Assembly (NCBI GenBank): GCA_964469335.1
Contig: CAYXYK010000003.1
Span: forward strand, 3,315-67,314
Source of the DNA: an uncultured Candidatus Saccharibacteria bacterium
Lineage (GTDB): Bacteria; Patescibacteriota; Minisyncoccia; Phycocordibacterales; UBA6899
Length of the DNA stretch: 64,000 nt
Reading direction: 5' to 3'
Part shown: positions 23,803-50,155 of the stretch, in pieces
How the letters are laid out: each line of letters begins with the position of its first letter
Numbering within the stretch: the stretch's first letter is position 1
Translations under genes and position numbers: made by a program
The notes under the pieces: model-generated
Database searches by the model: none
What the model was told of the DNA's origin: nothing
Seen by the model: only the letters and a program-made list of their open reading frames with translations

Positions 23803-24419
23803 GTAAACAAGTAGACAAGATCGCATATCGTTTCGAACATTACTGCGGACTCGACCGTTGGTCGAGTTACTATTACCAACTGCGTGAACTGCTCGCGCTC
23901 TCGCCGAAGAGCGTTCTCGAGGTAGGGAAGGGCGACGGGGTGATCGGACACTATCTCAGCGCGAATACGGATGTCTCGTATCGCTCGCTCGACATCGCTG
24001 AAGATCTCATGCCGGACATCGTCGGGGAGATCGAACATATCCCGCTTCCTGATGCCTCGGTCGATATCGCGGCAGCGTTCGAGGTGCTCGAACATCTGCC
24101 GTTCGAGCGATTCACATCCGGTCTCCGTGAGCTCGGTCGTGTCGCAAAGCATAAGGTCATCATCAGTCTCCCACACTATGGTCCATCGCTTCGGTTCTCG
24201 TTCAAGTTGCCGTTCCTCGTTGAGAAGAAGTTCGCATGGAAGATTCCGCATCATCCGACTCACACCTTTAATGGTGAGCACTATTGGGAGATCGGCAAGA
24301 AAGGATACGAGCTCGGTGTAGTGCGAAATGCGATCGAGAATGAATTCGTCATAGAAAAGGAATTCGTTCCGTTCGAGAATCAGTACCACCACTTTTTCAT
24401 ACTCCGCAAAAAAACATGA
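23799..24419 (+). CDS. class I SAM-dependent methyltransferase
   Basis: VLEVGKGDGVIGHYL motif I, plus SVDIAAAFEVLEHLPFERF. The start at 23799 overlaps the upstream stop (ATGA). Confidence 0.7.
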   Translation: MSKQVDKIAYRFEHYCGLDRWSSYYYQLRELLALSPKSVLEVGKGDGVIGHYLSANTDVSYRSLDIAEDLMPDIVGEIEHIPLPDASVDIAAAFEVLEHLPFERFTSGLRELGRVAKHKVIISLPHYGPSLRFSFKLPFLVEKKFAWKIPHHPTHTFNGEHYWEIGKKGYELGVVRNAIENEFVIEKEFVPFENQYHHFFILRKKT

Positions 24420-27015: not shown

Positions 27016-27984
27016 ATGAAACAGGGGAGCATCTCATTGGTCGTTCCGGCATACAATGAAGCCTTGAATTTACCCATTTTCTATGAGCGGGTCACTTCCG
27101 TACTCAAGAAAATCGGAAGAGACTATGAGATCGTTGTCGTCGACGATGGTTCCAAGGACAACAGTTTTGCTGTGCTTTCCGATCTTGCCACAAAAGATAA
27201 TAGACTCAAAGTCATCTGTTTTCGTCACAATTTCGGACAAACAGCAGCACTGTCAGCCGGCATTGAAGCTGCGAACGGGGATGTCATCATCCTGATCGAT
27301 AGCGATCTTGAGAATGATCCGGAAGATATCAATACAATCATCAATAAGATGGATGAGGGGTACGATGTTGTTTCTGGTTGGAGAAAAAATCGCTGGAAGG
27401 GTCAGTTCCTTACTCGTAAGATACCGTCACTTGCAGCGAATAGCCTCATCTCGAAAGTCACCGGAGTGAAACTCAATGATTTCGGCTGCACGCTCAAGGG
27501 TTATCGCAGGGACGTGATCAAGAACATCATGCTTTACGGTGAGATGCACCGCTTCATACCAGCATATGCAAAAAAGCAGGGCGCGCGGATCGGAGAAGTA
27601 GAAGTTCGCTTTGCGCCTCGAATACACGGAAAAAGTAATTATGGGTTTTCGCGTTTATTGCGTGTCCTTCCTGATCTCCTGCTGCTTAAGTTCTTGGAGA
27701 AGTACATGAATCGCCCGATGCACTTTTTTGCCTACGCGGGATTTTGGTCATTTCTCTTTGCATTCGTTACTGTTGCAACCGCAATAGTATTGCGATTTAC
27801 AATGGGGATTAGCTTGATCCAAACACCGCTCCCAACACTTGCAGGAGTGCTCCTCATCATAGGTACGCAGTTCTTCCTCATGGGTATCATTGCAGAGATG
27901 ATGATGCGAACGTACTACGAGTCGCAGAGCAAGCGTCCATACACGATAAAGGAGAGCATCAATATTCAAAGTGAACTTTCGTAG
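27016..27984 (+). CDS. GT2 polyprenol-phosphate glycosyltransferase (GtrB/ArnC/DPM1-like) with C-terminal TM helices
   Basis: ISLVVPAYNEALNL...YEIVVVDDGSKDNS...ILIDSDLENDP gives the DxD motif. It has two C-terminal TM helices. Confidence 0.8.
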   Translation: MKQGSISLVVPAYNEALNLPIFYERVTSVLKKIGRDYEIVVVDDGSKDNSFAVLSDLATKDNRLKVICFRHNFGQTAALSAGIEAANGDVIILIDSDLENDPEDINTIINKMDEGYDVVSGWRKNRWKGQFLTRKIPSLAANSLISKVTGVKLNDFGCTLKGYRRDVIKNIMLYGEMHRFIPAYAKKQGARIGEVEVRFAPRIHGKSNYGFSRLLRVLPDLLLLKFLEKYMNRPMHFFAYAGFWSFLFAFVTVATAIVLRFTMGISLIQTPLPTLAGVLLIIGTQFFLMGIIAEMMMRTYYESQSKRPYTIKESINIQSELS

Positions 27985-27987
27985 CCT

Positions 27988-29859
27988 ATGTGCGGCATAG
28001 CAGGATACATAGGGCAAGGAGATAGTAAGTCACTTGAGCAAATGATCTTCGCAATTCGTCATCGAGGCCCCGACAACAGCGGAGTTTGGGCAGGTGATGG
28101 GGTCGGGTTCGCACACGCACGACTCGCAATCATTGACCTCTCTCCTGCAGGGCAACAGCCGATGTGGGATGAAGATCATAAGACAGTCATCATATTCAAT
28201 GGGGAGATATACAATTTTCGTGAGCTTCGTGATGAATGTGTGAAGGACGGGTATGCTTTTCGCGGACACTCAGACACCGAGGTGATATTGGCATTATATA
28301 AAAAACATGGCGACGCCTGTATTGAACGCTTGAACGGGATGTTTGCGATCGCGCTCTATGACACGAAGACGAAGTCACTACTTCTTGCTCGTGATCGTAC
28401 AGGGAAGAAGCCTCTTTATTATGGAGTGTGGAACGACACTCTTGTCTTCGGCTCTGAGCCAAAAGCATTATTCGCGCATGCTGCAGTGAGAAAGGAGATA
28501 AATGCCGATGCGGTCGAAGCATATCTTGCTCTTGATTATGTGCCAACACCACTCTCGATATATAAGGATATGTATAAATTGGCGCCTGCTACGATTCTCA
28601 CATACAAAGACGGAGTGATATCAACCAGAGTATTCTGGCATTCATCAGGAGAAAGCTCGATGCAAAACATAGAGGATGCGATTCTCGAACTGGATCGGCG
28701 CTTCGCAAAAGCTGTCGAATCAAGGCTGGTGTCCGATGTTCCGCTCGGAGTGTTTCTCTCCGGCGGCATCGATAGTTCTGCTGTGGCATACTATGCTGCG
28801 AAAGCGAAGAAAGAGCCGATCCACACATTCTCTATCGGTTTCGACGAGGCATCATTCGATGAGTCGGTGTATGCGAAGCAGATCGCACTTCATGTTAAGA
28901 GCGAACACCACCACAAGGTACTCACCGGAGAGGACTCACTTCGAGTCATTCCAAAGGTATTCGCTCAGCTTGATGAACCGATGGCTGACGCATCAATAAT
29001 CCCGACCTATCTGCTTTCTGAGTTTACGCGGGAGCATGTAACTGTTGCGCTCGGAGGAGATGGGGGAGACGAGTTGTTTGGTGGGTATCAGACATTTCAG
29101 GCCGAGAAGATCCATCAATACCTCACTATGTTTCCTTCCGGGCTAGCGGAGAAAGTGCTCAAAGGAGTTGCGGGCATCATTCCCAGAAGTAATAGCTACA
29201 TGAGCAATGAATTCAAGTTACGCAAGTTCATTGAAGGGATGAATGAAGAGAATATGGCAAGGCGTCACCTTGTGTGGACGGGTACATTCAATGACGCTGA
29301 GCGCAAGCGTCTTCTGCTTCCAGATATACGTGCCGTACAAAAACGTGCCGATCCACTCGAGACAGGAGTGGCACAGTTCAATTCTTCACCTGCGAGTGAT
29401 CCGCATAATAAATTACTTTGGATGTATCAGCGAACTTTCATGATGGACCAAGTGATGGTCAAGGTCGATCGCGCGAGTATGTATAATGCGCTTGAAACTC
29501 GCGCACCATTTCTTGATACGGATGTCGTTGAATTCGCGAACTCGCTTCCGTACCACTTCAAACTCAAGAATTTTTCTGGAAAACATGTTCTCAAGTTCAT
29601 GCTCCGAGGGAAGATACCGGACCAAATCATCGATCGGACGAAAAAAGGATTCGGAGTTCCTGTCGGTGCATGGCTACGCGGACCACTCAGAGAATGGGGA
29701 GAGATGTTGCTTTCTGAGGAGAATATCAACGCGAGTGGAGTATTTGCCCCTGAATATATTCGCGAATTATGGACGGAGCACCAATCTGGAAAGCGTGATC
29801 ACCGCAAACGATTGTGGAATATACTGGTCTTTCTCGAGTGGAAAAAGCGATTTTCTTAG
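27988..29859 (+). CDS. asnB: asparagine synthetase (glutamine-hydrolysing) family amidotransferase
   Basis: N-terminal MCGIAGY (Ntn Cys2) and PP-loop SGGIDSS. Confidence 0.85.
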   Translation: MCGIAGYIGQGDSKSLEQMIFAIRHRGPDNSGVWAGDGVGFAHARLAIIDLSPAGQQPMWDEDHKTVIIFNGEIYNFRELRDECVKDGYAFRGHSDTEVILALYKKHGDACIERLNGMFAIALYDTKTKSLLLARDRTGKKPLYYGVWNDTLVFGSEPKALFAHAAVRKEINADAVEAYLALDYVPTPLSIYKDMYKLAPATILTYKDGVISTRVFWHSSGESSMQNIEDAILELDRRFAKAVESRLVSDVPLGVFLSGGIDSSAVAYYAAKAKKEPIHTFSIGFDEASFDESVYAKQIALHVKSEHHHKVLTGEDSLRVIPKVFAQLDEPMADASIIPTYLLSEFTREHVTVALGGDGGDELFGGYQTFQAEKIHQYLTMFPSGLAEKVLKGVAGIIPRSNSYMSNEFKLRKFIEGMNEENMARRHLVWTGTFNDAERKRLLLPDIRAVQKRADPLETGVAQFNSSPASDPHNKLLWMYQRTFMMDQVMVKVDRASMYNALETRAPFLDTDVVEFANSLPYHFKLKNFSGKHVLKFMLRGKIPDQIIDRTKKGFGVPVGAWLRGPLREWGEMLLSEENINASGVFAPEYIRELWTEHQSGKRDHRKRLWNILVFLEWKKRFS

Positions 29860-29975
29860 TGCACTTTGCCGTGATATCTCTCGGTTGGAGCGTCTAAGAA
29901 GTCATAAAATGCTTCCTCCTCGTTCGTCGCAGTAAGGTTGTGAGCGTCGGACATAATTGCTACACTAGGACAACT

Positions 29976-30557
29976 ATGTCGGGAAACACCCCCAAAAAGC
30001 TTAATCTTGGCTGCGGAGAAGACCAAAAAGAAGGCTATATCAATGTCGATTGGTCTCCACTTGCAAAGCCAGACGTCGTCCATGACCTCAATAAGCTTCC
30101 GTATCCCTTCGAGGATAATTCGATCGACCTGATCGAGGCATTCCATGTGCTCGAGCATCTTGATACGCCTTTTGCGATCATGAAGGAATTCCACCGCATT
30201 CTAAAAGTAGGGGGGAAGCTTCACGTAAAAGTTCCCCACTTCAGTCGCGGATTCACTCACGCAGAACATGCACACGGATTTGACGTGACTTTCCCGCTCT
30301 ACTTCAATAAGAATTTCACAAAGTCCGGGTATTATGGAGTACCTCTCGATCTTACCTCCATGCGACTCTCATGGCTGGCGTTCTTCCACCTCCTGCCGTT
30401 CATGGGCTATGGTCCCCTCATGATCAGTATCTTGCGAGGGGTGAATGCAGTCATCTCATTCATCGCGAACATCTCGCCGGCATTCACCAGCAGGATCTGG
30501 TGCTTCTGGGTCGGCGGTTTCGATGAGATCGAATTCGTGTTTACTAAATCAGAGTAA
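29976..30557 (+). CDS. class I SAM-dependent methyltransferase (type 11)
   Basis: LNLGCGEDQKEGYINVD and IEAFHVLEHL. Start chosen at ATG 29976, which follows AGGA. Confidence 0.7.
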   Translation: MSGNTPKKLNLGCGEDQKEGYINVDWSPLAKPDVVHDLNKLPYPFEDNSIDLIEAFHVLEHLDTPFAIMKEFHRILKVGGKLHVKVPHFSRGFTHAEHAHGFDVTFPLYFNKNFTKSGYYGVPLDLTSMRLSWLAFFHLLPFMGYGPLMISILRGVNAVISFIANISPAFTSRIWCFWVGGFDEIEFVFTKSE

Positions 30558-30565
30558 TAGTCGTT

Positions 30566-31333
30566 ATGTCATCACAGCACCGATTCGGCTATGAGTGGGA
30601 TAAGTACTCTTGGGTAAGTGAAAATTACGAAGGACAGTTTCGTAATTGGACCACTCCGTATATCCCAGAAGATTGGAAAGGGAAGAAAGTGCTCGATGTC
30701 GGATGTGGGATGGGTCGCAACAGTTATTGGCCGATGAAGTGGGGCGCATCATCTGTCACTGCATTCGATTATGACGAGCGTTCAGTCGCTCGCGCAAAAG
30801 AGACGCTCAAGGAATTCAAGGACGCGAATGTGCTGTATAAGAGTGTGTACGAGATCGACTGGAAGGATGAATTCGATATCACGTTCTCGATCGGAGTCAT
30901 CCATCACCTCAAAGACCCGAAGCTTGCCGTTGCGAATATGGTAAAAGCGCTTCGTCCAGGTGGGAAACTCCTTATTTGGGTATATGGTTATGAAGGAAAC
31001 GAATGGATTGTTCGTTATGTTGACCCTATACGACTCAATATCACTTCGAAACTACCGCTTCCCCTTGTTCATTTTTTGTCATATTTCTGCTCTGTGCCGC
31101 TTTATTTATACGTGAAATATGGGAACCCAAAGAGCGGGTATCTCAAGCAACTTGCAACATTCGATCTCTGGCATATTCATAGTATCGTCTTCGATCAGCT
31201 TATCCCGGACGTTGCGAATTACTGGAAAAAAGACGAAGTTCGCGGGCTTGTGGACGGTCTTGCAGTTGCGGAAGTAGATGTGTCCGCGCCGCCGAATAAT
31301 TCGGGGTGGATACTTCGTGCGACGAAGAAATGA
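30566..31333 (+). CDS. class I SAM-dependent methyltransferase
   Basis: VLDVGCGMGRNS motif I and LRPGGKLLIWVYG. Confidence 0.7.
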   Translation: MSSQHRFGYEWDKYSWVSENYEGQFRNWTTPYIPEDWKGKKVLDVGCGMGRNSYWPMKWGASSVTAFDYDERSVARAKETLKEFKDANVLYKSVYEIDWKDEFDITFSIGVIHHLKDPKLAVANMVKALRPGGKLLIWVYGYEGNEWIVRYVDPIRLNITSKLPLPLVHFLSYFCSVPLYLYVKYGNPKSGYLKQLATFDLWHIHSIVFDQLIPDVANYWKKDEVRGLVDGLAVAEVDVSAPPNNSGWILRATKK

Positions 31334-31334
31334 T

Positions 31335-32036
31335 ATGGAAAAGCAAACGATCGATAATTTCGACCTGCGTAACTTCTTCAAGCGTTGGCCGAGCGCTTAC
31401 TATTTCATCGGGACAGTCTTCGGTCCGATGATGTTTTCTGGGCTTTCTTCCAAAGGATTCCTTTCAAAGTATCAAATTGAAGGTAAAACCCTCAATCTTG
31501 GTTCTGGTCCGAGAGTGCTCGGAAGCGAAGTCGAGAACGTAGATATCCATCCTTATCCCGGAGTAGTCATCGTAGCTGACATTGCAAAAGTGCCTCTTCA
31601 AAACGGCTCGGTCTCCCGGATCATTTGCGACAACGTCCTTGAGCATGTCAGTGATGTCAACGGTGCAGTGAAAGAAATAGAGCGACTCCTCGCATCTGGG
31701 GGATTAGTGTATGTCGCACTCCCGTTCATCTATCCATTTCACTCGTCTCCGTATGATCGTAGGCGCTATACCAAGCAAGGACTAGAAGAACTATTCTCAG
31801 GATTTGATATCGTTGAAAGCGGGGTTCGTGCAGGTCCATTTTCCGCCTTGACCGTTTACCTGAACCATCTTTTTGCGTTCATCTTTTCATTCGGATCTGC
31901 TCGCCTCGCCTCACTTTTAGTGAATGTGGTCATGTTCGTAACATTCCCGATCAAGCTGCTCGACATCATCTTCAGTTACTGGCCGCGTGCGGACGAACTT
32001 GCCGCTGTCATTTATTTTGTAGGAAGAAAGAAATGA
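31335..32036 (+). CDS. class I SAM-dependent methyltransferase
   Basis: LNLGSGPRVLGSEVENVD and CDNVLEHVSD...LASGGLVYVALPF. Start ATG 31335 lies right after the upstream stop. Confidence 0.65.
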   Translation: MEKQTIDNFDLRNFFKRWPSAYYFIGTVFGPMMFSGLSSKGFLSKYQIEGKTLNLGSGPRVLGSEVENVDIHPYPGVVIVADIAKVPLQNGSVSRIICDNVLEHVSDVNGAVKEIERLLASGGLVYVALPFIYPFHSSPYDRRRYTKQGLEELFSGFDIVESGVRAGPFSALTVYLNHLFAFIFSFGSARLASLLVNVVMFVTFPIKLLDIIFSYWPRADELAAVIYFVGRKK

Positions 32037-33790
32037 ACGCGGTCATGCTTGCGCAACGGTTGCGCGCCAAATCCTTCGTGCTCTTCTTCGCACTGCTTGT
32101 CGGGGTGCTTTCCGTGCTTCCGCAATTCCTTGCACCGATGGCGCTCGGAAAAGACTACAAAGGTATCCAATTCTTCTATCTTGACGATGAGGACATTTAC
32201 CGTGCTCGTATCCACGAGATACTCGACGGCTATGGCAGAGTAGCATCACCGTATGTCTACGAATACAAAGAGGTCAAAACGGTCGTGCCACCGATCAACG
32301 AGTATCTCTACGCGGGGATAGCACTCATATTCGGACTTTCCGGAGCGATCGTCCTCAGTAAGTTCCTTCTTCCGATGCTACTGTTCCTTCTGGTCTATCT
32401 ACTTGTCACTCGACTCATTGACCGAGAGGATGAAGATGATGCAATGTGGAGCGGTATCGCCTCGGGACTTCTCGTGACCCTTGGCTATGATCTTGTCGAT
32501 TATCGCACCGTCTTCGATATCATCAGGAATGGGACCGACATCGAGCACCTTCTGGTTTGGACAAGATTGGTCAACCCAATCACTGGCGCACTCGTGTTCT
32601 TCTCGTTCTTGCTTGCACTATGGGCGGTCTTCGCTCGTGGGGGGCGAGCGAACATCGCAGTCGCGGCAACATTGCTCGCCGTCTCAGTGGGCTATTTCTT
32701 CTCGTTCGGCATCGCCGCCTCAACGCTTGGTGTGCTGATGCTCATCGGCCTTCTTCGCAAAGACATGCTGTCACTCAAGCGTCTCGGAGCGGTATTGGGA
32801 CTCTCGCTCCTCTTGCAACTGCCGTACTGGGTCTCAACGCTCTCCTCGATGGGAGGAACAGCGGGGAAGGTGACGGCACTGCGGAACGGGATGTTCTTCA
32901 CCCATGAATTCATCCTCAATAAGGTGCTCCTTTTCGTAACGGTGATCGTCTTCGGCGCCTTCCTCTATGCGCTGCGAACAAAGATCATATCGGCGGGCAA
33001 CAAATCAGCGCAATTCCTCCTCGCACTCATCCTCGCATGCTGGGTCGTGTTCAATCAGCAAGTGCTCACTGGGAGGGAAATATGGCCGTCGCACTTCGTG
33101 CAATACACTATCCCGATAGCGTTCATCGCGCTTCTCTATGTCGCATTCATCGTCATTCGGCCGAAGCTGCCGCGGCTATGGTTCTCATTCATCATGCTCG
33201 CCGTGCTCGTGTCCGTGTCGTGGGGAGTGTTCAGCGCCCTCAGCTATCGTTATGTGCTCGCTGATTTTCGTGACGCTCAAGGACAAGCTGCGCTCATCGA
33301 TTGGCTTAATCGGAACGGTGAAAAAGATTCCGTCGTGCTGATCAAAGAGTATGACGAGCCGCTCGAGCGGAATATCCCTGCGTATACGCACAGCAATGTT
33401 TACAGTACGACATATGGGTTCTTCGGTATCACCCCCGAACGCATCAAACACAACTTCTACATCCGCTTGCGCCTTCTCGGGATCGATGCAAACACACTCG
33501 CCGCATATCTCGATACCCACGAGGATGAAGTACGCGGGTACTTCTTCGAAGACTGGAGTCAGATGTTCGGGCACGGCAAGGACGCTTGGCTCACCGAAAA
33601 AGAAGCACAGATATCGGATGAATACATGGAGTTCCTTCGCGGCGACCTCAAACAGCAGCTTACGAAGTATCGGCTAGACTACCTCGTTTCGAAACAGAGG
33701 ATCATCGATCCGTTCCTCGCTGAACTGCCGGGGCTCAAGCTCATCGCTACACCGGGTGCATACTTCGTATATTCCTTCGCACATCAATAG
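32033..33790 (+). CDS. large polytopic membrane protein, possible GT-C-fold glycosyltransferase/polymerase
   Basis: About 12 predicted TM helices, then a soluble domain of about 160 aa. There is an acidic DDED motif in the first extracytoplasmic loop (FFYLDDEDIYRARIHE). It is adjacent to GtrA/GtrB-like genes. The assignment is tentative. Confidence 0.45.
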   Translation: MNAVMLAQRLRAKSFVLFFALLVGVLSVLPQFLAPMALGKDYKGIQFFYLDDEDIYRARIHEILDGYGRVASPYVYEYKEVKTVVPPINEYLYAGIALIFGLSGAIVLSKFLLPMLLFLLVYLLVTRLIDREDEDDAMWSGIASGLLVTLGYDLVDYRTVFDIIRNGTDIEHLLVWTRLVNPITGALVFFSFLLALWAVFARGGRANIAVAATLLAVSVGYFFSFGIAASTLGVLMLIGLLRKDMLSLKRLGAVLGLSLLLQLPYWVSTLSSMGGTAGKVTALRNGMFFTHEFILNKVLLFVTVIVFGAFLYALRTKIISAGNKSAQFLLALILACWVVFNQQVLTGREIWPSHFVQYTIPIAFIALLYVAFIVIRPKLPRLWFSFIMLAVLVSVSWGVFSALSYRYVLADFRDAQGQAALIDWLNRNGEKDSVVLIKEYDEPLERNIPAYTHSNVYSTTYGFFGITPERIKHNFYIRLRLLGIDANTLAAYLDTHEDEVRGYFFEDWSQMFGHGKDAWLTEKEAQISDEYMEFLRGDLKQQLTKYRLDYLVSKQRIIDPFLAELPGLKLIATPGAYFVYSFAHQ

Positions 33791-33878: not shown

Positions 33879-35564
33879 ATGACTACAACAGAGCAGCAAA
33901 CACAGACTTCTTCAGACGAGAAAGTCGTCATCGTCGGATTCGGATGGGTGGGGCAGGCGAATGCGCTTGCGCTGGTCCAAATGGGCTACAAGGTCTATTC
34001 CTACGACGTATTACCCCCTAAGCAGCATTACAGCGGCGCAGAAAAGCATCTCTACGAGAAGATCATTCAACTCAAGGGTCCGCTCGAAGTGGACGGCGAG
34101 AAGACCTCGTACATGGTCTGTGTCGGCGACCGTGTCGACGAAGAGGGAAGACAGGACATCGTGTTCATCAAGCAGGCGCTCGAGTCGCTACGCAATGCGA
34201 AAGGTGTGGTGATCCTTCGTTCGACCATCGTCCCGAAGTCGCTCGATGATCTTCATTTCGATCTCTATATTCCGGAATTCCTGCATGAGAAGTTCGCCAT
34301 CCAAGAATGTATCCGTCCGTACTATTTCGTGCTCGGCTCGGGGACGAAGGGAAGGGAGGTCGCACTGCCGTCGTATGTGCTCTTGTGGCAGGAACGCGCA
34401 GACAAGGTCTTCTCAGGGACCTATACCGAAGCTTCGTTCATCAAGTATTACTCCAACATGTGGAATGCCGTCCGTATCGCATTCGTCAACGAACTCGGTG
34501 ATGTCATAGCAAAGAATTCAACGAGTGAACATCCGTCGGAAGATGCCGAGAGAGTGATCAATTTCCTGTTCGAAGGGAAGAGCTACCTTCGCTACGGAAA
34601 AGGTTTTGGTGGACACTGTCTTCCGAAGGACATGCGTGCGTTCCTTGCTGCATACAAGGATGAACACCATACGGAGATCCTCTCCGGAACGTATCTTTCC
34701 AATGAAGCTCATGCCAAGTTCGAGCGTGAGCACAATACGTCGCTTCCCGAGTGGTACTCAGCGTGGAACTATGACAGCATCGTCGACCACCAGAAGAAAG
34801 CCGTCACGCTATTCATAAGGAAGATCTATCACTCTCCACCCGTCACGTTCATTCGGCACTTCTTCAAGCCCGCGGTGGTGTTCGGTGAGCGTTTCGTTCC
34901 GCCGCGCACGAAAGAAGAGCAGCGACGGGTGTGGGAGGAGAAGGCAAAAGAGAATGCCCGCTACTACGTGAACCAAAAGACGAGAAGCGCTGAGTTCGTC
35001 GACGAGTCCGAGATACAAGAGACAGGTAAGGAGGATTTCGAGCGACTCATCCTTGGCGACAAGAAACTGATCGACCGACTTCCGGGGGAGAGGAAGAAGC
35101 TGGTGGTACTCGATATCGGCTCCGGGATAGGGCGCATGACCGAGATGTTCGCAGGAGAATTCGGACAAGTGCACGGTATCGACATCTCGCCGACGATGGT
35201 CGAGATCGCTCGCCGAAGACTCGGTACGCTTCCGAACGTGTCGTTCAAGGAATCCGAAGGTGACAGTGTGCCGTACGGAGACAATACTTTTGATCTGATC
35301 TTCTCGTATCTCGTATTCCAGCATATCGATGACATCGCGACACTCGAGCGGTACATGAACGAGATCCGTCGTACGCTCAAGCCGAAGGGTGTCGCAAAAA
35401 TACAGCTGCGGAGCGGACTCGGAGTCAGGCGTTGGGTATGGTCCTACGGAGTGCCGTTCTCGCAGGAAAGCGCGGCGCGCCTCGCTGAGGAGGCAGGATT
35501 ACAAGTGCTCAACAATGAAGTTGAAGATACGAAATTCCTCTGGCTGATCGTCAGAAGACCATAA
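33879..35564 (+). CDS. fusion: short UDP-sugar 6-dehydrogenase-family domain (paralog 3) plus C-terminal class I SAM methyltransferase
   Basis: N-terminal VVIVGFGWVGQAN and GFGGHCLPKD (GGxCxxKD motif). The C-terminus has VLDIGSGIGRMTEMF motif I and LIFSYLVFQHI. Confidence 0.7.
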   Translation: MTTTEQQTQTSSDEKVVIVGFGWVGQANALALVQMGYKVYSYDVLPPKQHYSGAEKHLYEKIIQLKGPLEVDGEKTSYMVCVGDRVDEEGRQDIVFIKQALESLRNAKGVVILRSTIVPKSLDDLHFDLYIPEFLHEKFAIQECIRPYYFVLGSGTKGREVALPSYVLLWQERADKVFSGTYTEASFIKYYSNMWNAVRIAFVNELGDVIAKNSTSEHPSEDAERVINFLFEGKSYLRYGKGFGGHCLPKDMRAFLAAYKDEHHTEILSGTYLSNEAHAKFEREHNTSLPEWYSAWNYDSIVDHQKKAVTLFIRKIYHSPPVTFIRHFFKPAVVFGERFVPPRTKEEQRRVWEEKAKENARYYVNQKTRSAEFVDESEIQETGKEDFERLILGDKKLIDRLPGERKKLVVLDIGSGIGRMTEMFAGEFGQVHGIDISPTMVEIARRRLGTLPNVSFKESEGDSVPYGDNTFDLIFSYLVFQHIDDIATLERYMNEIRRTLKPKGVAKIQLRSGLGVRRWVWSYGVPFSQESAARLAEEAGLQVLNNEVEDTKFLWLIVRRP

Positions 35565-35566: not shown

Positions 35567-36676
35567 ATGAACAACAAAAAAGTACTCATCACCGGCGGAG
35601 CAGGGTTTGTCGGTTACCATCTTTCAAAACGACTCGCAAAAAAGGGTTATGAGATCGTCATTGCAGACAATTTCTTCCGCAGCGATGACGACGCAGACCT
35701 TAAGGAGTTGCTTGCACTTCCGAATGTCACATTGCGCAAACTCGATCTCACCGATAAAGCAGCCTGGGATGAAGTAGGTGAGGGATATGACTACGTGTAT
35801 CATCTTGCCAGCATCAACGGTACGAAGCTTTTCTATGAGATCCCGCATGAGGTACTGCGCATCGGTGTCGCGACGACGATGAACGTCCTCGAGTGGTTCC
35901 ATTCGAAGAACAATAAACCGAACGCGAAGATCCTCTATACTTCATCGAATGAAGCATATGCGGGTGCACTCGAGCATTTCAATCAGCTTCCTATTCCGAC
36001 CCCCGAAGACGTCGCACTCGTGATCATCGATCCGTATAACCCGCGTTGGTCCTATGCCGGACAGAAACTCATCGGAGAACAGTTCTTCATCCACTACGCG
36101 AAGGCATATGACTTCAGGATGTCGATCGTACGTCCGCACAATTTCTATGGTCCACGGGAGGGATATCATCATGTCATTCCGGAAGTCGCCGAACGTATCA
36201 AACAGCGGGTTGACCCATTCCCAATCTATGGATCGGACGATACCCGTTCATTCTGCTATATCGATGATGCGGTAGAAGCTATGGACATGGTGATGGAATC
36301 GGAAAAGACCGACGGGGGAACTTATCATATCGGCTCCGATGAAGAGACCGTGATCAGTGACCTGATCGACACCATGTTCGACATCATGGGATGGCATCCG
36401 ACGAAACTCGATCTCAAGCCGTCTCCCAAGGGGAGCGTGAAGAGGCGTCTTCCAAGCGTAGAAAAGTTGAAGCGCGACACCGGATGGAGTGCGAAAGTCG
36501 GAATCAAGGAGGGACTCAAGAACACCATCGAATGGTATGAGAAGAATCCGAGCAGACTCCGCATCTGCAGTTCATGTGGCGGAAAGATGGAGGTGGTCAC
36601 TGTCGAAGGAGAGACTGCACATACCAAAGCCGCGATCTATCGCTGTGTGAAATGCGGCAGAAATGAGAAAGAATAG
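35567..36676 (+). CDS. NAD-dependent sugar epimerase/dehydratase (SDR) with C-terminal CxxC..CxxC zinc ribbon
   Basis: VLITGGAGFVGYHL Rossmann motif. TSSNEAYA...YAGQK gives the S/YxxxK pattern. The C-terminus CSSCGGKMEVV...CVKCG carries four Cys. Confidence 0.75.
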   Translation: MNNKKVLITGGAGFVGYHLSKRLAKKGYEIVIADNFFRSDDDADLKELLALPNVTLRKLDLTDKAAWDEVGEGYDYVYHLASINGTKLFYEIPHEVLRIGVATTMNVLEWFHSKNNKPNAKILYTSSNEAYAGALEHFNQLPIPTPEDVALVIIDPYNPRWSYAGQKLIGEQFFIHYAKAYDFRMSIVRPHNFYGPREGYHHVIPEVAERIKQRVDPFPIYGSDDTRSFCYIDDAVEAMDMVMESEKTDGGTYHIGSDEETVISDLIDTMFDIMGWHPTKLDLKPSPKGSVKRRLPSVEKLKRDTGWSAKVGIKEGLKNTIEWYEKNPSRLRICSSCGGKMEVVTVEGETAHTKAAIYRCVKCGRNEKE

Positions 36677-36688
36677 TCTCCCCTAAGA

Positions 36689-37786
36689 CTACTTGAGTCC
36701 GGCGTAGAATGCTTTAATTTCCTTGCATACTCGCAAGATGTCCTTGTCGGAGAGTGTGAACGCCGAAGGGAGCCATAGCGACGCGGGGGACATGTGGGTC
36801 GAATTGGGGAAATTCTTGTCTGATTTTTTGTATGCCAATTGGCGGTGGATCGGATACCAGTATTTACGACTGTCGATATTGTGGGCGCGGAGAAGCTTCT
36901 CAAGAGCGTCGCGATGGATGGTCGCGATATCGGTCCACTGCGGCACTCCGCCTGCTTGGGAGGGGAATATGTAGATATCACCGACTCCTTGGAGCTCCTT
37001 GGCGTAAATGGCGTAATTTCGCTTCATACGCTCGACTCTCTTGCCGAGGTGGGTGAGTTGTCCTAATCCGACTCCCGCCTGCAGGTCGGTCATTTTGAGG
37101 TTGTAACCGATGGTGTTATGGAGGTCGTCGCCGCCGGTGCCGCGGATAGGGCGACCTTGGTCCTTGAGAGGCCGCAGTGCTTCATAGATCTTCTTGTCAT
37201 TGGTGACCACTACGCCGCCTTGTCCCGTGGAGATGGTCTTGTTCGGAGAGAACGAGAAGCATCCTGCATTTCCCCAAAGTCCGAGATATTTTCCTTTGTA
37301 TTTTGAAAGCAACGCCTCAGCAGCATCCTCGACGACGATGAGTTTATGCTTCTTCGCGATCTTGAGGATATTCGTCATGTCCGCAGCGCGACCGGTGACG
37401 TGAACCGGAACGATGGCGCGAGTCTTCTTGGTAATCGCCTTCTCGATCGCATCAGTACTTATGGTGAGGGTGTTCGGATCGACGTCGACAAGGACAGGTG
37501 TCGCTCCAAGGAGGTCAACGGCGTTCGCGGTCGCAATGAAGGTGATGTCGGGAACGAGTACTTCGTCGCCGCGAGAGACTCCAGCTGCCTTGAGTGCGAG
37601 GAAGATGGCGATGGTGCAGTTATTCGTCGCGATCGCGTACTTCACTCCGAGGAGCTTCTTGATCTCTTCCTCGAATCGAGTGACCAAAGGGCCCTCGTTG
37701 ACGTAGTTATTGTCGAGTGCACTTTTCACGAAGCGATGGTCTTCTTTCTCGATGTGCGGCTGCCACCAGGGGATTCTTTTTTCCAT
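36689..37786 (-). CDS. DegT/DnrJ/EryC1/StrS-family PLP-dependent sugar aminotransferase
   Basis: WWQPHIEKEDHRFVKSALDNNYVNEGPLVTRFE N-terminus. The segment GCFSFSPNKTISTGQGG contains the conserved PLP-lysine. Confidence 0.85.
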   Translation of the reverse strand: MEKRIPWWQPHIEKEDHRFVKSALDNNYVNEGPLVTRFEEEIKKLLGVKYAIATNNCTIAIFLALKAAGVSRGDEVLVPDITFIATANAVDLLGATPVLVDVDPNTLTISTDAIEKAITKKTRAIVPVHVTGRAADMTNILKIAKKHKLIVVEDAAEALLSKYKGKYLGLWGNAGCFSFSPNKTISTGQGGVVVTNDKKIYEALRPLKDQGRPIRGTGGDDLHNTIGYNLKMTDLQAGVGLGQLTHLGKRVERMKRNYAIYAKELQGVGDIYIFPSQAGGVPQWTDIATIHRDALEKLLRAHNIDSRKYWYPIHRQLAYKKSDKNFPNSTHMSPASLWLPSAFTLSDKDILRVCKEIKAFYAGLK

Positions 37787-37794
37787 GAATGAGA

Positions 37795-39042
37795 TTAGTT
37801 ATCAATGATACGAGGAGTAGGGAGTGGCATGATGAACTTGCCCTTGTAGCCGAGCTTGCGGTAGATCCGCATCAATTCTTCGCCGATGTGCCATGACAGG
37901 ATGAGCGCATATGACGGCTGCTCCTTGAATATCTGTTCTTCGTCGACGACGGGGATGTGCGTTCCGGGAGTGTAGAGCCCGATCTTCGGTGAACCTTTCT
38001 TCTCACCGGCATACGAAACGAGGTGTGTGTTGATCTTGGTGAACCCGAGAAGTGTGTTGGAGCGTGCCGCGCTCGAAACTCCGGCGATGGTCGCGCCGGT
38101 CTTCTTGACCGAGAGGAGGAGTGCGAGGAGGTCGTTCTTCGCGGAGATGACGCGCTCGCCGAATGCACGAAGGGTCTTCGTGTCATAGAGACCAAGAGCC
38201 TCTTCTTCCTTGAGGATCTCCGCCACCCGTGCAGCCGGCTTGTGTGTTCCGGTCTTCATGTAGACGCGAATAGAGCCGCCTGCCGCATCAATGTGTTCGG
38301 CGTCGACAATGGACATGCCCGCATCCTTGGCGAGTCGCATAAGCGGCTTGAGCGCGTAGAAACGCAAATGTTCGTGGTAGACGGTATCGAATTCGAGTTT
38401 CTCGACGATGTCAGCAAGATACTGTGACTCAGAAACGAACACGCTGTCCTTTCCCATCATCGCTTTGACGGCACGGATGAGTTTCGGTGTGTCGTCGATG
38501 TGTGCGAACACATTGGTCGCGGTGATGACCTTGGCCTTGCCGTGCTTTGCTACTACTTTCTTCGCACTCGCAAGGGTGAAGAATTCTTCGTAGGTTTTGA
38601 TGCCGTTCTTGTTCGCGACACGTGCCGCGCGGGTGGGCTCGACTCCGACAACCTTCATCCCGCGTCGTTTGAACGAAGAAAGAAGTGTTCCGTCGTTCGA
38701 TCCGATGTCGACGATAAGATCACCGTCTACATAGCTCCCGTTTGCCTTGAGTGTCTCGGCGAGCGACTCGAAATTGCGGATGAGCATGTTGGTAAGTCCG
38801 GTACGATACGGGTAGTGGGGAGGGAAGACGAGTTTCGGGTCAACGACATAGTCGAGCTGGACGAGTCCGCATTTCTCGCAGCGCACGAGGTTCAAGGGGT
38901 AGGTCGTCTCTTCTTCGTGGAGCTCCTTTTGGGTGCGATAGTTCTGCACGATAGGCTGATGGCCGAGATCGAGAATACCCTTGAGGTTATCATTGCCGCA
39001 AATCTGGCATTTGCTGACGTGACCGTATGCGTTCTTCTTCAT
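37795..39042 (-). CDS. sugar C-methyltransferase-like SAM methyltransferase (N-terminal Zn-ribbon + Methyltransf_13/14 architecture)
   Basis: N-terminal CQICGN...CEKCGLVQL zinc-binding motif. There is a central VDIGSNDGTLL SAM motif and a long C-terminal domain. This architecture is typical of TylC3/NovU-type C-methyltransferases. Confidence 0.7.
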   Translation of the reverse strand: MKKNAYGHVSKCQICGNDNLKGILDLGHQPIVQNYRTQKELHEEETTYPLNLVRCEKCGLVQLDYVVDPKLVFPPHYPYRTGLTNMLIRNFESLAETLKANGSYVDGDLIVDIGSNDGTLLSSFKRRGMKVVGVEPTRAARVANKNGIKTYEEFFTLASAKKVVAKHGKAKVITATNVFAHIDDTPKLIRAVKAMMGKDSVFVSESQYLADIVEKLEFDTVYHEHLRFYALKPLMRLAKDAGMSIVDAEHIDAAGGSIRVYMKTGTHKPAARVAEILKEEEALGLYDTKTLRAFGERVISAKNDLLALLLSVKKTGATIAGVSSAARSNTLLGFTKINTHLVSYAGEKKGSPKIGLYTPGTHIPVVDEEQIFKEQPSYALILSWHIGEELMRIYRKLGYKGKFIMPLPTPRIIDN

Positions 39043-39086
39043 CGTAGTGTGCGTGTAAAAAATCTATTAAGTTCATTATTTATAAC

Positions 39087-39899
39087 CTACTTTCCCTCAT
39101 TCGGGTTGCGCGAATCGTCGTTTTCCTGCTTAAAACCTGAAAAGTATTTTTCGTCAACAATGAGCATGTGCTTATCTCCGATAGTGAAGTCCGCAGGAGG
39201 GAACGGTTCGAACGTCATGGCACGGATGAAACGCTCAATGGTCTTGCCATCCCAATTCCAGTCTATCTTGCCGTCTCCCGGAAGCCCTTTCGGATAGTAG
39301 GTCGCTTCGCTCTCGTTCTGTGGGGTTGAAACGATCTTCTTGCCTGCGACAAGATCCGCCACAAGGGCGGTGAACAGTGTCGTTCCGGCCTGCGTGAATT
39401 TGTCGTACAGCGTTCTCCCGGTGTCAGTTTCCGTGATAGGGAAACGTTCTTGTGCGACGATCGGCCCGCTATCGAGTCCTTCATCCATGAAGTGGAGGGT
39501 CGCTCCGGTCTCTTTTTCGTTGTTGAAGAGTGCGTGTACAGTAGAGAATCTTCCGCGATATTTCGGGAGCAGTGCGGGGTGGATGTTGAAGGTGCCAAGC
39601 GTGGGGATATCGAGCACTTCTTTCGGGATGATCTGCATCCCGCCGATACAGAAGATATGGTCCGGTTTCGCGTCCCTGATCATGGAAACCACCTCTTCGT
39701 CCCGGACTTTTTTCCCGGTAATGACCGTGATGTCATGTTCCCTGGCAACACGGACCAAGGACTCGTGCCAGGAGTCGACCCCTTCGTCATCGAGGTTTGC
39801 GACCACGAACTCCGGGGGAATGTTCTCAGCGACAAGAATGCGGAGTGCATTGACCCCGATCTGCTTCCCGCCGATGAATACGCTTCGTATGTGCTCCAT
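39087..39899 (-). CDS. formyltransferase (Fmt/ArnA-N-like; probable sugar N-formyltransferase)
   Basis: FNIHPALLPKYRG is the formyl-transferase signature (HxxLLPxxRG). The N-terminal segment VFIGGKQIGVNALRIL is a nucleotide-binding fold. Confidence 0.8.
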   Translation of the reverse strand: MEHIRSVFIGGKQIGVNALRILVAENIPPEFVVANLDDEGVDSWHESLVRVAREHDITVITGKKVRDEEVVSMIRDAKPDHIFCIGGMQIIPKEVLDIPTLGTFNIHPALLPKYRGRFSTVHALFNNEKETGATLHFMDEGLDSGPIVAQERFPITETDTGRTLYDKFTQAGTTLFTALVADLVAGKKIVSTPQNESEATYYPKGLPGDGKIDWNWDGKTIERFIRAMTFEPFPPADFTIGDKHMLIVDEKYFSGFKQENDDSRNPNEGK

Positions 39900-39981: not shown

Positions 39982-41187
39982 ATGAAAATCTACTTCATCA
40001 CCTCAAAACTCAATTTCTTCAAATCCGGAGGCTCCATCGAAGAGTTCGACCTGATGATGCGCACATTGGTCGCCGACGGGCATCAAGTCGTGTGCGTCAC
40101 GACCTTTGCCGAGGACAATGATATCCAGACCGAACTGCCGTACACCGTCGTCGTCGAGGACATTCCATGGAGAAGCGTCTACAATCTCCAGCGCGGGGTG
40201 TATCGGATCATGAAAAAATATGAGCATGATGCAGACTTCTTCCACGTAGACGGACATCTTTTCCTGTACGGAGCAGGATGTTATCGCAGAATGGGCGGGA
40301 AAGTCCCGGTGTCCGCGTTCTTTAACCGTGAGCTCGGATTCTTCCCGGCAGACCGTTCGACACTGCTTGCAGCAAAGCAGGTTTCGCTTCCAAGGAAGAT
40401 CAAAAAGATACTCCGTGACACACTCGAGAGGACGCTCGGTATGTATCTTGCACGCGCGATCGACCTTCGCTCGTTCATCAGTCCGATGTATCAAAAGATG
40501 TACGAACGAAGTGGGCTTCATGACAACGGACGCCATTTCGTGATGGGTGATCCGATCGACTTTCCGCTCCTGATGAGTAAGAATCAGATCACGGAACAGA
40601 GTTATGTCTCGCGGACTGACCATGAAGGGCCGGTCCAACTCTTCTTCTCAAGTCGAATGGCTCCAGGGAAGGGGTTCGACCTCATTCTTGCGGGCTTCGC
40701 ACGGGTGAAGGATAAAGAACGTTACCGATTGATCCTAGGCGGGACGGGGCCTGAAGAGGCGGCGATACACAAGATGGCGGAAGAGCTCGACATCATGAGA
40801 TACATCACCTTTCCGGGGTGGATGACCCGGGATGATCTCTACGCGGCATACAAGAAGGCGGATGTCTTCATTCAAATAGGATGGAGACCGGAGGGGACTT
40901 CGATCTCGCTGCTCTATGCGATGGCATTCGGCCTACCTTCGATAGTCCCGAAAGAGAGCGGACTCGCCTGGCAAGCCGGCGGTTCGGCGCTTCATATCAC
41001 CAACGGCGATCACGACTCGGTCGCACGAGCGATCGAACAGCTCGGGACGGATGCTGCGCTTCGTAAAAAACTCTCCGGCGAATGTTTCGTCCGTCTTGCC
41101 GATGAACAGATGGATCACAAAAAGGTGATTGCGAAGTGGGAGCGAGAGATGCGCTCCATCAGCGAAGGAACGAAAAGCGCATCTTGA
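39982..41187 (+). CDS. GT4-like glycosyltransferase
   Basis: EGTSISLLYAMAFGLPSIVPKESG E-x7-E-like block. I chose the ATG at 39982 (MKIYFITSKLNFF). The upstream part of the track ORF overlaps the minus-strand formyltransferase. Confidence 0.7.
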   Translation: MKIYFITSKLNFFKSGGSIEEFDLMMRTLVADGHQVVCVTTFAEDNDIQTELPYTVVVEDIPWRSVYNLQRGVYRIMKKYEHDADFFHVDGHLFLYGAGCYRRMGGKVPVSAFFNRELGFFPADRSTLLAAKQVSLPRKIKKILRDTLERTLGMYLARAIDLRSFISPMYQKMYERSGLHDNGRHFVMGDPIDFPLLMSKNQITEQSYVSRTDHEGPVQLFFSSRMAPGKGFDLILAGFARVKDKERYRLILGGTGPEEAAIHKMAEELDIMRYITFPGWMTRDDLYAAYKKADVFIQIGWRPEGTSISLLYAMAFGLPSIVPKESGLAWQAGGSALHITNGDHDSVARAIEQLGTDAALRKKLSGECFVRLADEQMDHKKVIAKWEREMRSISEGTKSAS

Positions 41188-42694
41188 ATCGGTCGACGAA
41201 CGACATGCCGATGATCCGCAGGGTCGGGTATGGGCCTTTCTTCGCGAATCGGTATGTCAGATACATCGTATAGAGATATCCGAGTGAGATGACCCCTCCG
41301 AGAAAAAGGAATCCGAGTGTCGTGTTGAAGACCGGGTAGCGAAGGAAGAAGAGCGAGACAAGAAGCGGGGCCGCCGTCGCAATAACGACCGAGAGCACTG
41401 TCTCCGCGATCTTCGGGAGTGAGAGCTGCACGAGTCTGTGTAGGTGAAATACCGAATATGCGCCTGCGACGAGTGAGCTCGCCGCCATCGCGTACGCTGC
41501 TCCGGTGATGCCGTACAAGGGGGTGAGAAACAGTAATGCGGTGATCAGTACGATGACATAGAGTACCCCCGCAGTGAATTGGATACGCGGCTTCCCGAGC
41601 GCGTTCAAGACCGGTGCTGTGAGCGTCACTGTGAGGATGTCGATGGTCGCCGCGATGGTGAGGATCTTCAGGTTCTCCGCGATCGCGATCCATTTGTCTC
41701 CGAGCAGGATGAGCACAAGTCTGTCACCAGCAACCAAGATAGCGACCAAGAAGGGGAATGCGACCACGAAGATGACCTCGAAGCTCTTGCTCCAACCTTC
41801 GCGCACATGTGCAAGAGACTCCTGTACGCGGGAGTATGCGGCGAAACTGATCTTGTTGATCAGGCTCACGACTGGTGAAGTTGGAGCGTTCGCGAGGCCT
41901 TTTGCCTTGGTGAAGAGACCGACTGAGGTCGGGTCGGTGAAGCGAGCGACGATCGAGTCTTCCAGCGTGCGAGCGAGTTGTCCGAACAACTGCTGTCCGA
42001 AGATCCACTGGCTGTAGGGGAGGAGCTCCCTGAGTTTCCTGAACTTGAAATCGAAATGTGGACGGTAGTCATTCAGGAGGTAGGTCGAACCGATGTTCAT
42101 CGTCACCGAAAGTACGCTCGCAAGAAAGAGTGCCCAGTACGTGTGGAAAAGCATCGCACCACCCACAGAAACGAAAAATGATGTCGCTGAACCGGAAAGG
42201 TCACGCAGAAAGACCTTCTTGAAATCGAGATTCTTGAAAAAATATATCTGTCCGATGTTGCTCCATCCCGGAATGAAGAGCAGGAATCCGCTCATCTGAA
42301 ACAGTAGCGTTGCTTCTTCCGCATGAAAGAACGAGGCGAACAACGGTCCAAGCAATATCACGACGGCGAAGAGCAATATCGAGCGAATGACATTGAATGT
42401 CCATATCGCATTGAGGTACTTTTTCTCTTCCCCGTCCTTCTTTTGGATGAGTGCGTTCTCGAACGATAGGCTTGTGCATGCGTCGATGAGATTCGGGATG
42501 ATGGCTGCAATCGCGATGAGACCGAAATCCGCAGGGGTCAATAGTCGTGCAGTGATGAAGAAGGTGCCGTAGCCGAAGAACTTCTGCGAAATCGTGTTGA
42601 CCACAGACCAATGTCCTGCCAAAAGAGAAAGCCCGAGCGTGTTCTTGCTCTTATTCAAAAAGGCTTCTTTTTCAGATGAGTCCTCGTTGTTCAT
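41159..42694 (-). CDS. Wzx-like oligosaccharide flippase (MOP/polysaccharide biosynthesis protein family)
   Basis: 511 aa with about 12-14 TM helices and a typical PF01943/PF13440 layout (LLTPADFGLIAIA...). It converges on, and overlaps by 29 nt, the GT4 at 39982..41187. Confidence 0.75.
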   Translation of the reverse strand: MNNEDSSEKEAFLNKSKNTLGLSLLAGHWSVVNTISQKFFGYGTFFITARLLTPADFGLIAIAAIIPNLIDACTSLSFENALIQKKDGEEKKYLNAIWTFNVIRSILLFAVVILLGPLFASFFHAEEATLLFQMSGFLLFIPGWSNIGQIYFFKNLDFKKVFLRDLSGSATSFFVSVGGAMLFHTYWALFLASVLSVTMNIGSTYLLNDYRPHFDFKFRKLRELLPYSQWIFGQQLFGQLARTLEDSIVARFTDPTSVGLFTKAKGLANAPTSPVVSLINKISFAAYSRVQESLAHVREGWSKSFEVIFVVAFPFLVAILVAGDRLVLILLGDKWIAIAENLKILTIAATIDILTVTLTAPVLNALGKPRIQFTAGVLYVIVLITALLFLTPLYGITGAAYAMAASSLVAGAYSVFHLHRLVQLSLPKIAETVLSVVIATAAPLLVSLFFLRYPVFNTTLGFLFLGGVISLGYLYTMYLTYRFAKKGPYPTLRIIGMSFVDRFKMRFSFLR

Positions 42695-50114: not shown

Positions 50115-50155
50115 GCGAAGAAGGTGAGTACTATTGGAACACTAACATTTTGCCT

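Follow-up and report, generated by a model that had tools for sequence, protein, structure and literature searches.

What sugar is made by a set of genes that brings together a nucleotide-sugar 6-dehydrogenase, a short-chain dehydrogenase/reductase (SDR), a C-methyltransferase (CMT), an aminotransferase (AT), and a formyltransferase (FT)? We addressed this question for a 64,000-nucleotide stretch of DNA (hereafter the window, in whose coordinates positions are given) from an uncultured Candidatus Saccharibacteria bacterium (contig CAYXYK010000003.1, positions 3,315 to 67,314). An initial annotation of the window had read these genes as one pathway for a nucleotide-linked, C-methylated, N-formylated amino sugar. 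The open reading frames (ORFs) that it named lay exactly where it had placed them, with their catalytic residues intact: an Ugd-like/methyltransferase fusion (33879–35564, plus strand; 561 amino acids) and an extended SDR (35567–36676, plus strand; 369 amino acids), followed on the minus strand by a pyridoxal phosphate (PLP)-dependent DegT-family sugar AT (36689–37786; 365 amino acids), a CMT of the TylC3/TcaB9/KijD1/MtmC type (37795–39042; 415 amino acids), and a predicted sugar N-formyltransferase dependent on N10-formyl-tetrahydrofolate (N10-formyl-THF; 39087–39899; 270 amino acids). The enzyme set does predict a sugar carrying these decorations. As to which sugar, we lean, with slightly more belief than doubt, toward an Arn-like route with an added C-methylation, whose product would be a nucleoside diphosphate (NDP)-linked 4-formamido-4-deoxy-C-methyl-pentose, that is, a methyl-branched analogue of 4-formamido-4-deoxyarabinose (Ara4FN).

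We searched for related loci using one genome per species, which returned 26 loci. FT, CMT, AT, and SDR occurred together in ~20 independent loci and in three gene orders, and together with a 6-dehydrogenase the sets spanned Patescibacteria, Omnitrophota, metagenome-assembled genomes (MAGs) labelled Gammaproteobacteria, and Pelagibacteraceae. The nearest relative, at 77%, was a Candidatus Paceibacterota MAG; the others came from many lineages of Patescibacteria and from MAGs labelled Gammaproteobacteria, Omnitrophota, Nitrospinota, or Altiarchaeales, with the loci of Pelagibacteraceae (SAR11) at 37–41%. In relatives at 75%, 65%, and 60% identity, the neighbourhood was laid out as in the window, with a GT4 glycosyltransferase gene divergent from an FT–CMT–AT block that is convergent with SDR–Ugd, and with Capsule_synth, Wzx, CTP_transf_3, GFO/MocA, and second DegT genes near the module. 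This window-type order (class A: GT4, FT–CMT–AT, SDR–Ugd) was seen in loci L002, L004-7, L010, L012-14, and L020, a second (class B: [Ugd]–FT–AT–GT2–[Ugd]–SDR–CMT, the brackets marking the two places of Ugd) in L016, L018, and L022-26, and a third (CMT, Ugd–FT–AT–GT2–SDR) in the SAR11 loci L029-31 and L033. The conserved synteny, which held over ~20 loci and several phyla, ruled out a chance neighbourhood and bore out the initial view of the genes as one pathway unit; the gene set is a real conserved module, found mostly in uncultured ultra-small bacteria. The same annotation had called the combination rare, which holds for characterised biology but not for metagenomes of Patescibacteria, where the module is common.

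Two further features of the related loci bear on the product. In class B and SAR11 loci, a small GT2 glycosyltransferase lies between AT and SDR, and large polytopic membrane proteins flank the module. In addition, no sugar-1-phosphate nucleotidyltransferase was seen to accompany the module in the related loci, and BLAST with E. coli RfbA, CpsB, and GalF against all loci gave only a weak RmlA-like match in L006, L007, and L012. The CMT was found in nearly every locus with enough sequence. The clear exception was L015 (an Altiarchaeales MAG, 8757–15410), in which the order Ugd–FT–AT–GT2–SDR is followed by a PMT_2 glycosyltransferase of the GT-C fold (the family of ArnT) and the CMT is missing.

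The CMT contains the three domains Methyltransf_13 (76 bits), Methyltransf_23 (58 bits), and Methyltransf_14 (139 bits), all above gathering cut-offs and the last being the C-terminal domain expected of this architecture. It aligned over its full length with MtmC (4rv9; 254 bits) and TcaB9 (223 bits). Its Cys4 zinc ribbon (C12, C15, C55, and C58) falls at TcaB9-equivalent positions, and Y77, H181, Y222, E224, and H225 correspond to the active-site residues Tyr76, His181, Tyr222, Glu224, and His225 of TcaB9. In TcaB9, EvaC, and KijD1, the methyl group goes to C-3 of a 3-amino-4-keto sugar. By analogy, we propose that the enzyme of the window methylates the carbon alpha to a 4-keto group, with C-3 expected and C-5 possible.

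The AT (DegT_DnrJ_EryC1, 346 bits) carries its PLP lysine in the motif SFSPNK, aligned with K188 of ArnB. It is 32% identical to E. coli ArnB and belongs to the same superfamily, and the ArnB model matched it with 204 bits (cut-off 631). The profile of its family scored highest with GDP-perosamine synthase (284 bits), ahead of QdtB (247 bits) and ArnB (234 bits). Because perosamine synthase is a C-4 enzyme, this result supports amination at C-4 while giving no preference for ArnB, and we propose from these similarities that the AT would transaminate C-4 of the methylated 4-keto sugar.

The FT (Formyl_trans_N, 109 bits) contains the signature NIHPALLPKYRGR, as had been noted initially, and a triad (N105, H107, and D143) that is invariant in its family and aligns with N102, H104, and D140 of ArnA. 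Among PDB entries its best matches were ArnA (141 bits) and WbkC (138 bits), with Fmt at most 134, WlaRD 125, FdtF 109, and QdtF 98 bits. It is 30% identical to ArnA and stands alone, with no fused dehydrogenase domain. ArnA and WbkC, the closest relatives, both act on C-4 amines, and N-formylation of a C-4 amine is the activity that we propose for the FT on grounds of similarity. All NCBIfam models stayed below their cut-offs (PRK06988, 186 against 316 bits; ArnA, 165 against 777; fmt, TIGR00460, 126 against 201.5). The possibility that the protein is a methionyl-tRNA formyltransferase (Fmt) was ruled out by this model score, its length (270 versus ~315 amino acids), and its gene context in a sugar cluster; the full tRNA-binding C-terminal domain is not there, and a partial Formyl_trans_C match (profile positions 6–48 of 100) marks the short remnant of an Fmt/ArnA C-terminal domain. 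The family of the FT is large and consists of uncharacterised proteins of ~250–270 amino acids that are automatically annotated in NCBI/JGI as 'ArnA' or 'methionyl-tRNA formyltransferase' (for example P0019, P0031, and P0051). Judging from the comparisons above, the 'Fmt' labels are probably a systematic mis-annotation in genomes of the candidate phyla radiation (CPR).

Both the CMT and the AT need a ketone, and the SDR (Pfam Epimerase, 163 bits; GDP_Man_Dehyd, 145 bits) is the sole candidate in the module for generating a keto sugar. Four motifs are invariant in its family: S-x-E (TSSNEAY in class A, SSSEVY in class B), PR-x-x-Y-x3-K (NPRWSY..K), RPHN-x-YGP (RPHNFYGPR), and TR (TRSF). These agree with UXS1, with the dehydrogenase/decarboxylase domain of ArnA (ArnA-DH), and with 8vr2 (STSE), and the TDE triad of dTDP-glucose 4,6-dehydratases (RmlB) was absent from the aligned family. 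In BLASTP comparisons human UXS1 (hUXS1) scored 109 bits, RfbB 79, ArnA-DH 78, and E. coli Gmd 44, and the family profile matched 8vr2 with 189 bits and hUXS1 with 185, the RmlB types reaching at most 166. The nucleotide-binding loop reads GGAGFVG, in contrast to GVTGQDG in Gmd, and the gmd model gave 37 bits (cut-off 415). From these motifs and scores, we propose that the SDR is an NAD+-dependent C-4 oxidase/decarboxylase, similar to UXS and ArnA-DH, that would yield an NDP-4-keto-pentose. Names of structures in this superfamily can differ from function: 8shh and 8sk0 (EvdS6), named 'dTDP-glucose 4,6-dehydratase' in the PDB, are in fact glucuronate decarboxylases (PMC11350588). For the PDB codes 8VR2, 8VR3, 8VR5, 7B0M, 7B0D, and 7N7A, which include the nearest solved relatives of the AT and SDR, our literature searches found no relevant paper.

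The C-terminal CxxC...CxxC zinc-ribbon tail of the SDR that had been described as unusual was confirmed ('CSSCGG...CVKCG', residues ~333–365). Because the orthologues, at ~326–335 amino acids (in length, the lone exception is L010, with a 383-amino-acid ORF call), are without it, the tail is a lineage-specific add-on. It weakly matches the RNHCP domain.

The Ugd-like part of the fusion (UDPG_MGDP_dh_N and UDPG_MGDP_dh) shares GFGWVGQ, PEFLHE, and GGHCLPKD with E. coli Ugd in alignment and keeps the catalytic cysteine. Where Ugd has its UDP-binding C-domain, the fusion has an unrelated linker and a class I SAM-dependent methyltransferase domain (Methyltransf_11/25). We propose that it takes the first step of the pathway, from NDP-hexose to NDP-hexuronate. 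A 6-dehydrogenase accompanies the module in every sufficiently covered locus that contains the SDR, and it does so in three positions and orientations. In L004 and L005, a canonical three-domain dehydrogenase occupies the position of the window fusion, and such canonical enzymes are found in every class B or SAR11 locus that carries the SDR and has sufficient coverage. The canonical dehydrogenases of orthologous modules pass TIGR03026 with 258–277 bits (cut-off 190); among specific models, those of UDP-ManNAc and UDP-Glc dehydrogenases fit them best, though below cut-off. Elsewhere in the window, a second SDR gene (16090–17052, plus strand), whose product has the epimerase-type motif STSSVY, precedes a tandem pair of truncated Ugd-like genes (17257–18192 and 18198–19049, plus strand; 41% mutual identity). 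The products of both truncated genes keep the catalytic cysteine and lack the UDP-binding C-domain. Such truncation of Ugd appears to recur in this lineage.

The conserved 6-dehydrogenase and the decarboxylase-type motif of the SDR together point to an Arn-like pentose route, which the initial annotation had not considered and for which we infer the following order of steps and substrates. The Ugd-like domain would oxidise C-6 of an NDP-hexose, probably UDP-Glc or UDP-GlcNAc, to give a hexuronate; the lack of a nucleotidyltransferase with the module fits such an entry from a housekeeping UDP-sugar. The SDR would then oxidise C-4 and decarboxylate the sugar in the manner of ArnA-DH, UXS, and EvdS6, yielding an NDP-4-keto-pentose. 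With S-adenosylmethionine (SAM) as the donor, the CMT would methylate the carbon next to the ketone, at C-3 by analogy or possibly at C-5, after which the DegT AT would aminate C-4, and the FT would N-formylate the resulting amine with N10-formyl-THF. A precedent for the opening steps is provided by EvdS1/EvdS6 of everninomicin biosynthesis and by AT2433, where an NDP-glucose dehydrogenase and an SDR glucuronate decarboxylase produce a 4-keto-pentose that is then tailored (PMC11350588). Those natural-product pentoses (of everninomicin, and the aminopentose of AT2433 and calicheamicin) differ in that they are neither C-methylated nor N-formylated and come from actinomycete secondary-metabolite clusters.

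Enzymes that could deliver the finished sugar are encoded on both sides of the module. Divergent from the FT gene is a GT4 glycosyltransferase (39982–41187, plus strand; Glycos_transf_1), whose true start is at 39982 rather than at the TTG at 39340 of the mechanical ORF; orthologues 47–67% identical hold the same position in L002, L004-L013, L020, and L021, which makes the enzyme a candidate transferase for the finished nucleotide sugar. Beside it lies a Wzx/MOP-family flippase (41159–42694, minus strand; Polysacc_synt_3, 222 bits; MOP flippase model, 158 bits), a placement that is kept in the class A loci L002, L004, L006, L008, and L013. Directly upstream of the dehydrogenase fusion, a 585-amino-acid protein (32033–33790, plus strand) matched no Pfam or NCBIfam model. 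It has at least eight transmembrane segments, with a DDED motif after the first, and its AlphaFold2 model (pLDDT 89, pTM 0.90) has a GT-C fold: the top 20 Foldseek matches in the PDB were all GT-C enzymes (PglB, AftA, DPY19, AglB/STT3, and ArnT). Among its homologues, one has a PMT_2 match, another is fused to GtrA, and one in L010 (16662–19208) is fused to an ArnC-like GT2. The family occurs across Patescibacteria, with homologues in genomes also named Kaiser-, Taylor-, Falkow-, and Parcubacteria, which makes a Patescibacterial origin of the window itself very probable. Going by the model and these relatives, the protein may be a final transferase that depends on a polyprenyl-phosphate sugar or oligosaccharide, of an ArnT-like or oligosaccharyltransferase-like kind. 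Further upstream are an ArnC/GtrB-class GT2 (27016–27984, plus strand) with two C-terminal transmembrane helices and a GtrA-family flippase (22274–22750, plus strand) set among glycosyltransferases. The GT2 shares 34% identity with E. coli ArnC from end to end (best NCBIfam model ArnC, 208 bits; cut-off 529), has orthologues near the module in L004, L006, and L013, and, by this likeness, is a possible lipid-carrier loading enzyme.

In class A loci, the formylated nucleotide sugar would most likely pass through the GT4 into a lipid-linked glycan that Wzx flips and the GT-C enzyme delivers; the conservation of GT4 and Wzx suggests such a direct use of the formylated nucleotide sugar. An alternative delivery would run through the ArnC-like GT2, GtrA, and the GT-C enzyme.

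The Arn system (PmrHFIJKLM), which makes UDP-L-Ara4FN and undecaprenyl-phosphate-linked 4-amino-4-deoxy-L-arabinose (L-Ara4N) in Enterobacteria, Pseudomonas, and Burkholderia, draws on the same enzyme families as the module. The operon logic of class B and SAR11 is nearly the same, with Ugd, the SDR candidate, a DegT AT, an ArnA-near FT, a GT2, and a GT-C enzyme, so that the GT2 and the flanking membrane proteins reproduce the arrangement of Ugd, ArnB, ArnC, ArnA, and ArnT. The module differs in adding a TylC3-type CMT, in having FT and SDR as separate proteins where ArnA is a fusion, in its SDR being nearer to UXS than to ArnA-DH and its AT nearer to perosamine synthase than to ArnB, and, in the window, in having GT4 and Wzx in place of an in-module GT2. 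In addition, BLAST with E. coli ArnD, ArnT, and ArnE/F found no homologues in the window or related loci. Arn is the aminoarabinose route behind polymyxin resistance and acts on lipid A. Patescibacteria, which are most of the module's hosts, are not known to make lipid A, and the acceptor would therefore have to differ from that of Arn. In its broader form, as a widespread Arn variant of Patescibacteria and SAR11 that transfers a methyl-branched 4-formamido (or 4-amino) pentose to a non-lipid-A acceptor via GT4/Wzx/GT-C or GT2/GtrA/GT-C, and that in many lineages is started by a truncated Ugd, we regard the proposal as plausible with a little more doubt than belief.

Several observations weigh against the Arn-like pentose route. 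The activity of the window dehydrogenase is uncertain because its canonical UDP-binding domain is missing. The AT is nearer to GDP-perosamine synthase than to ArnB, the FT is equally near to WbkC, an enzyme of GDP-6-deoxyhexoses, and to ArnA, and an ArnD-like deformylase and ArnE/F were not among the proteins found by BLAST. The classification of the SDR is not decisive: its NCBIfam scores were all far below cut-offs, with the dTDP-glucose dehydratase model (132 bits) ahead of the UXS-like (65 bits) and ArnA (53 bits; cut-off 777) models, the T-S-E motif is also used by GMD-type dehydratases, and the best match of its profile was 8rdg (193 bits), which we identified in the literature, as 8RDG/8RDH, as a GDP-sugar 4-epimerase. 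A plain epimerase could be ruled out for the SDR, as the family-invariant Glu is present neither in 8rdg, which has Thr at this position, nor in the second SDR of the window; the STSSVY of this second Ugd–SDR unit also indicates that the Glu is specific to the SDR of the module. Not every related module fits neatly, since the SDR of L015 reads SSSMVY and is without this Glu. Finally, the argument as a whole is built from sequence and gene context, and we favour the pentose route with only slightly more belief than doubt.

The main rival is a 6-deoxyhexose route, leading to N-formylkansosamine or an N-formyl-3-C-methyl-perosamine-like sugar, in which the SDR would act as an NDP-hexose 4,6-dehydratase of atypical kind, the CMT acts at C-3, a Per-like AT at C-4, and a WbkC-like FT finishes the sugar, the dehydrogenase serving another sugar of the same glycan. 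In its favour are the GDP-perosamine synthase score of the AT, the good match of the FT to WbkC, the top NCBIfam scores of the SDR (the dTDP-glucose 4,6-dehydratase and LegB models), the use of T-S-E by GMD-type dehydratases, and a ManC encoded in the window (62505–63977, minus strand). To our knowledge, all characterised TylC3-family enzymes have 6-deoxyhexose substrates. Exactly this set of decorations is also known from a natural sugar: 4,6-dideoxy-4-formamido-3-C-methyl-2-O-methyl-L-mannose (N-formylkansosamine), described for the glycopeptidolipid of M. avium serovar 14 (PMC6268951, its reference 36), shows that 3-C-methyl and 4-formamido groups coexist on one natural sugar. The Brucella pathway to GDP-N-formylperosamine (Gmd, Per, and WbkC) likewise aminates C-4 and then N-formylates, and its Per and WbkC are, respectively, nearest and near to the AT and FT. 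It differs from the module, which has no Gmd-type dehydratase and a conserved dehydrogenase instead. The actinomycete pathways of TylC3, EvaC, TcaB9, KijD1, and MtmC share the architecture of the CMT, its Cys4 site, and its Tyr/His/Tyr-x-Glu-His residues, and like the module they need a 4-keto sugar; the known enzymes serve antibiotic biosynthesis and have dTDP-2,6-dideoxy or trideoxy hexoses as substrates, whereas the module sits in a surface-glycan island with a uronate-forming dehydrogenase and no dTDP-sugar genes. Against the 6-deoxyhexose route, the SDR does not have the Asp of TDE, and it scored well below its UXS1 value with both the gmd model and E. coli Gmd. In several phyla and all three gene orders the module retains a 6-dehydrogenase but no nucleotidyltransferase, a pattern difficult to account for were the dehydrogenase irrelevant, and the class B and SAR11 modules show the Arn-type layout with a GT2. 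We consider a 6-deoxyhexose product improbable, while giving it more weight than the two explanations that follow.

The pathway could be the proposed pentose route with a formyl group that is only transient, as in Arn, being taken off once the sugar is on the lipid carrier, which would leave the mature amine free or otherwise acylated. Arn itself sets the precedent (the FT domain of ArnA, then ArnC and ArnD), and the window encodes an ArnC-class GT2, a GtrA flippase, and a GT-C enzyme, as well as a Polysacc_deac_1 protein (24416–25180) two genes upstream of the GT2. This deacetylase, however, resembles PgaB/IcaB rather than ArnD, gave no BLAST match to E. coli ArnD, and does not accompany the module in L002, L004, or L006, and the class A partners GT4 and Wzx suggest direct use of the formylated nucleotide sugar. 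We consider loss of the formyl group quite improbable. The initial annotation's own candidate, a 3-amino-3,6-dideoxyhexose (Qui3NFo- or Fuc3NFo-like) with an extra C-methyl, we consider very improbable: the C-3 aminotransferase QdtB stands fairly close to the AT among its structural relatives (247 bits), the FT is detectably related to WlaRD (125 bits), TcaB9, EvaC, and KijD1 act on 3-amino sugars, and the known 3-formamido pathways (WlaRD, FdtF, QdtF; FdtA/QdtA, FdtB/QdtB) use the same type of N10-formyl-THF-dependent FT with an Asn-His-Asp triad, but these pathways need RmlA, RmlB, and a 3,4-ketoisomerase, and no RmlA, RmlB, Gmd, or FdtA/QdtA-type 3,4-ketoisomerase was found in the module or the ~60 scanned window ORFs (at least 150 amino acids), nor RmlA, RmlB, or the ketoisomerase in the related loci, the 3-amino-3-C-methyl-4-keto product would call for a 4-ketoreductase of which the module has none, and the nearest relatives of both AT and FT are C-4 enzymes (98–125 bits for the 3-formamido FTs versus 138–141 for WbkC and ArnA).

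Although the component families are well known, their combination and the predicted product are not. Our literature searches found no paper on this enzyme combination, on Arn-like modules of CPR or SAR11, or on genes for N-formylkansosamine, and no report of a methyl-branched 4-formamido (or 4-amino) pentose. If the Arn-like route with C-methylation is correct, it would give glycobiology a further branched amino sugar and a new way of making one, by C-methylation of a uronate-derived 4-keto-pentose, and would extend the logic of Arn to the envelopes of ultra-small uncultured CPR/Patescibacteria and of the abundant marine SAR11, whose little-known surface chemistry probably influences how they interact with hosts, phages, and grazers. 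The frequent mis-annotation of the FT family as methionyl-tRNA formyltransferase would be corrected as well. All five soluble enzymes are of small size and lend themselves to direct in vitro assay.

The remainder of the window contains other parts of a glycan island. Next to the flippase gene, the segment 42691–47467 encodes a Capsule_synth (KpsC/KpsS-like) protein and a trio of CTP_transf_3, GFO/IDH/MocA oxidoreductase, and 436-amino-acid DegT aminotransferase; the set is kept next to the module in the class A loci L002, L004, L006, and L013 and resembles an independent pathway to a CMP-activated amino sugar acid, together with its transferase. A nonulosonic-acid-type gene set extends over 50150–62493, with a PseB-like dehydratase (50150–51172), an aminoglycoside-3-N-acetyltransferase-like protein (52182–52958), a MaoC dehydratase and an SDR reductase (54519–55733), NeuB (57444–58511), a class III aminotransferase (60264–61592), and a second cytidylyltransferase (61732–62493).

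On the other side of the module, an asparagine-synthase-type amidotransferase gene followed by three genes for small class I methyltransferases (27988–32036, plus strand) forms a conserved block that in L002 and L004 likewise precedes the GT-C and dehydrogenase genes; its enzymes may form uronamides in the same glycan or carry out its O/N-methylation. Among the glycosyltransferase genes lies one for a radical SAM protein with a Radical_SAM_C domain (19604–21535, plus strand; 643 amino acids), and genes for B12-binding radical SAM proteins are found near the module in L006, L007, and L015. A CofD-family protein (2-phospho-L-lactate transferase-like; 12030–13127, plus strand; 315 bits) is encoded within the island, an unusual context for this family. 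Upstream of the island, a HerA/TraG-like ATPase (718 amino acids) and a lamin-tail-domain protein (3117–6241, plus strand) may be the remnant of a secretion or conjugation system.

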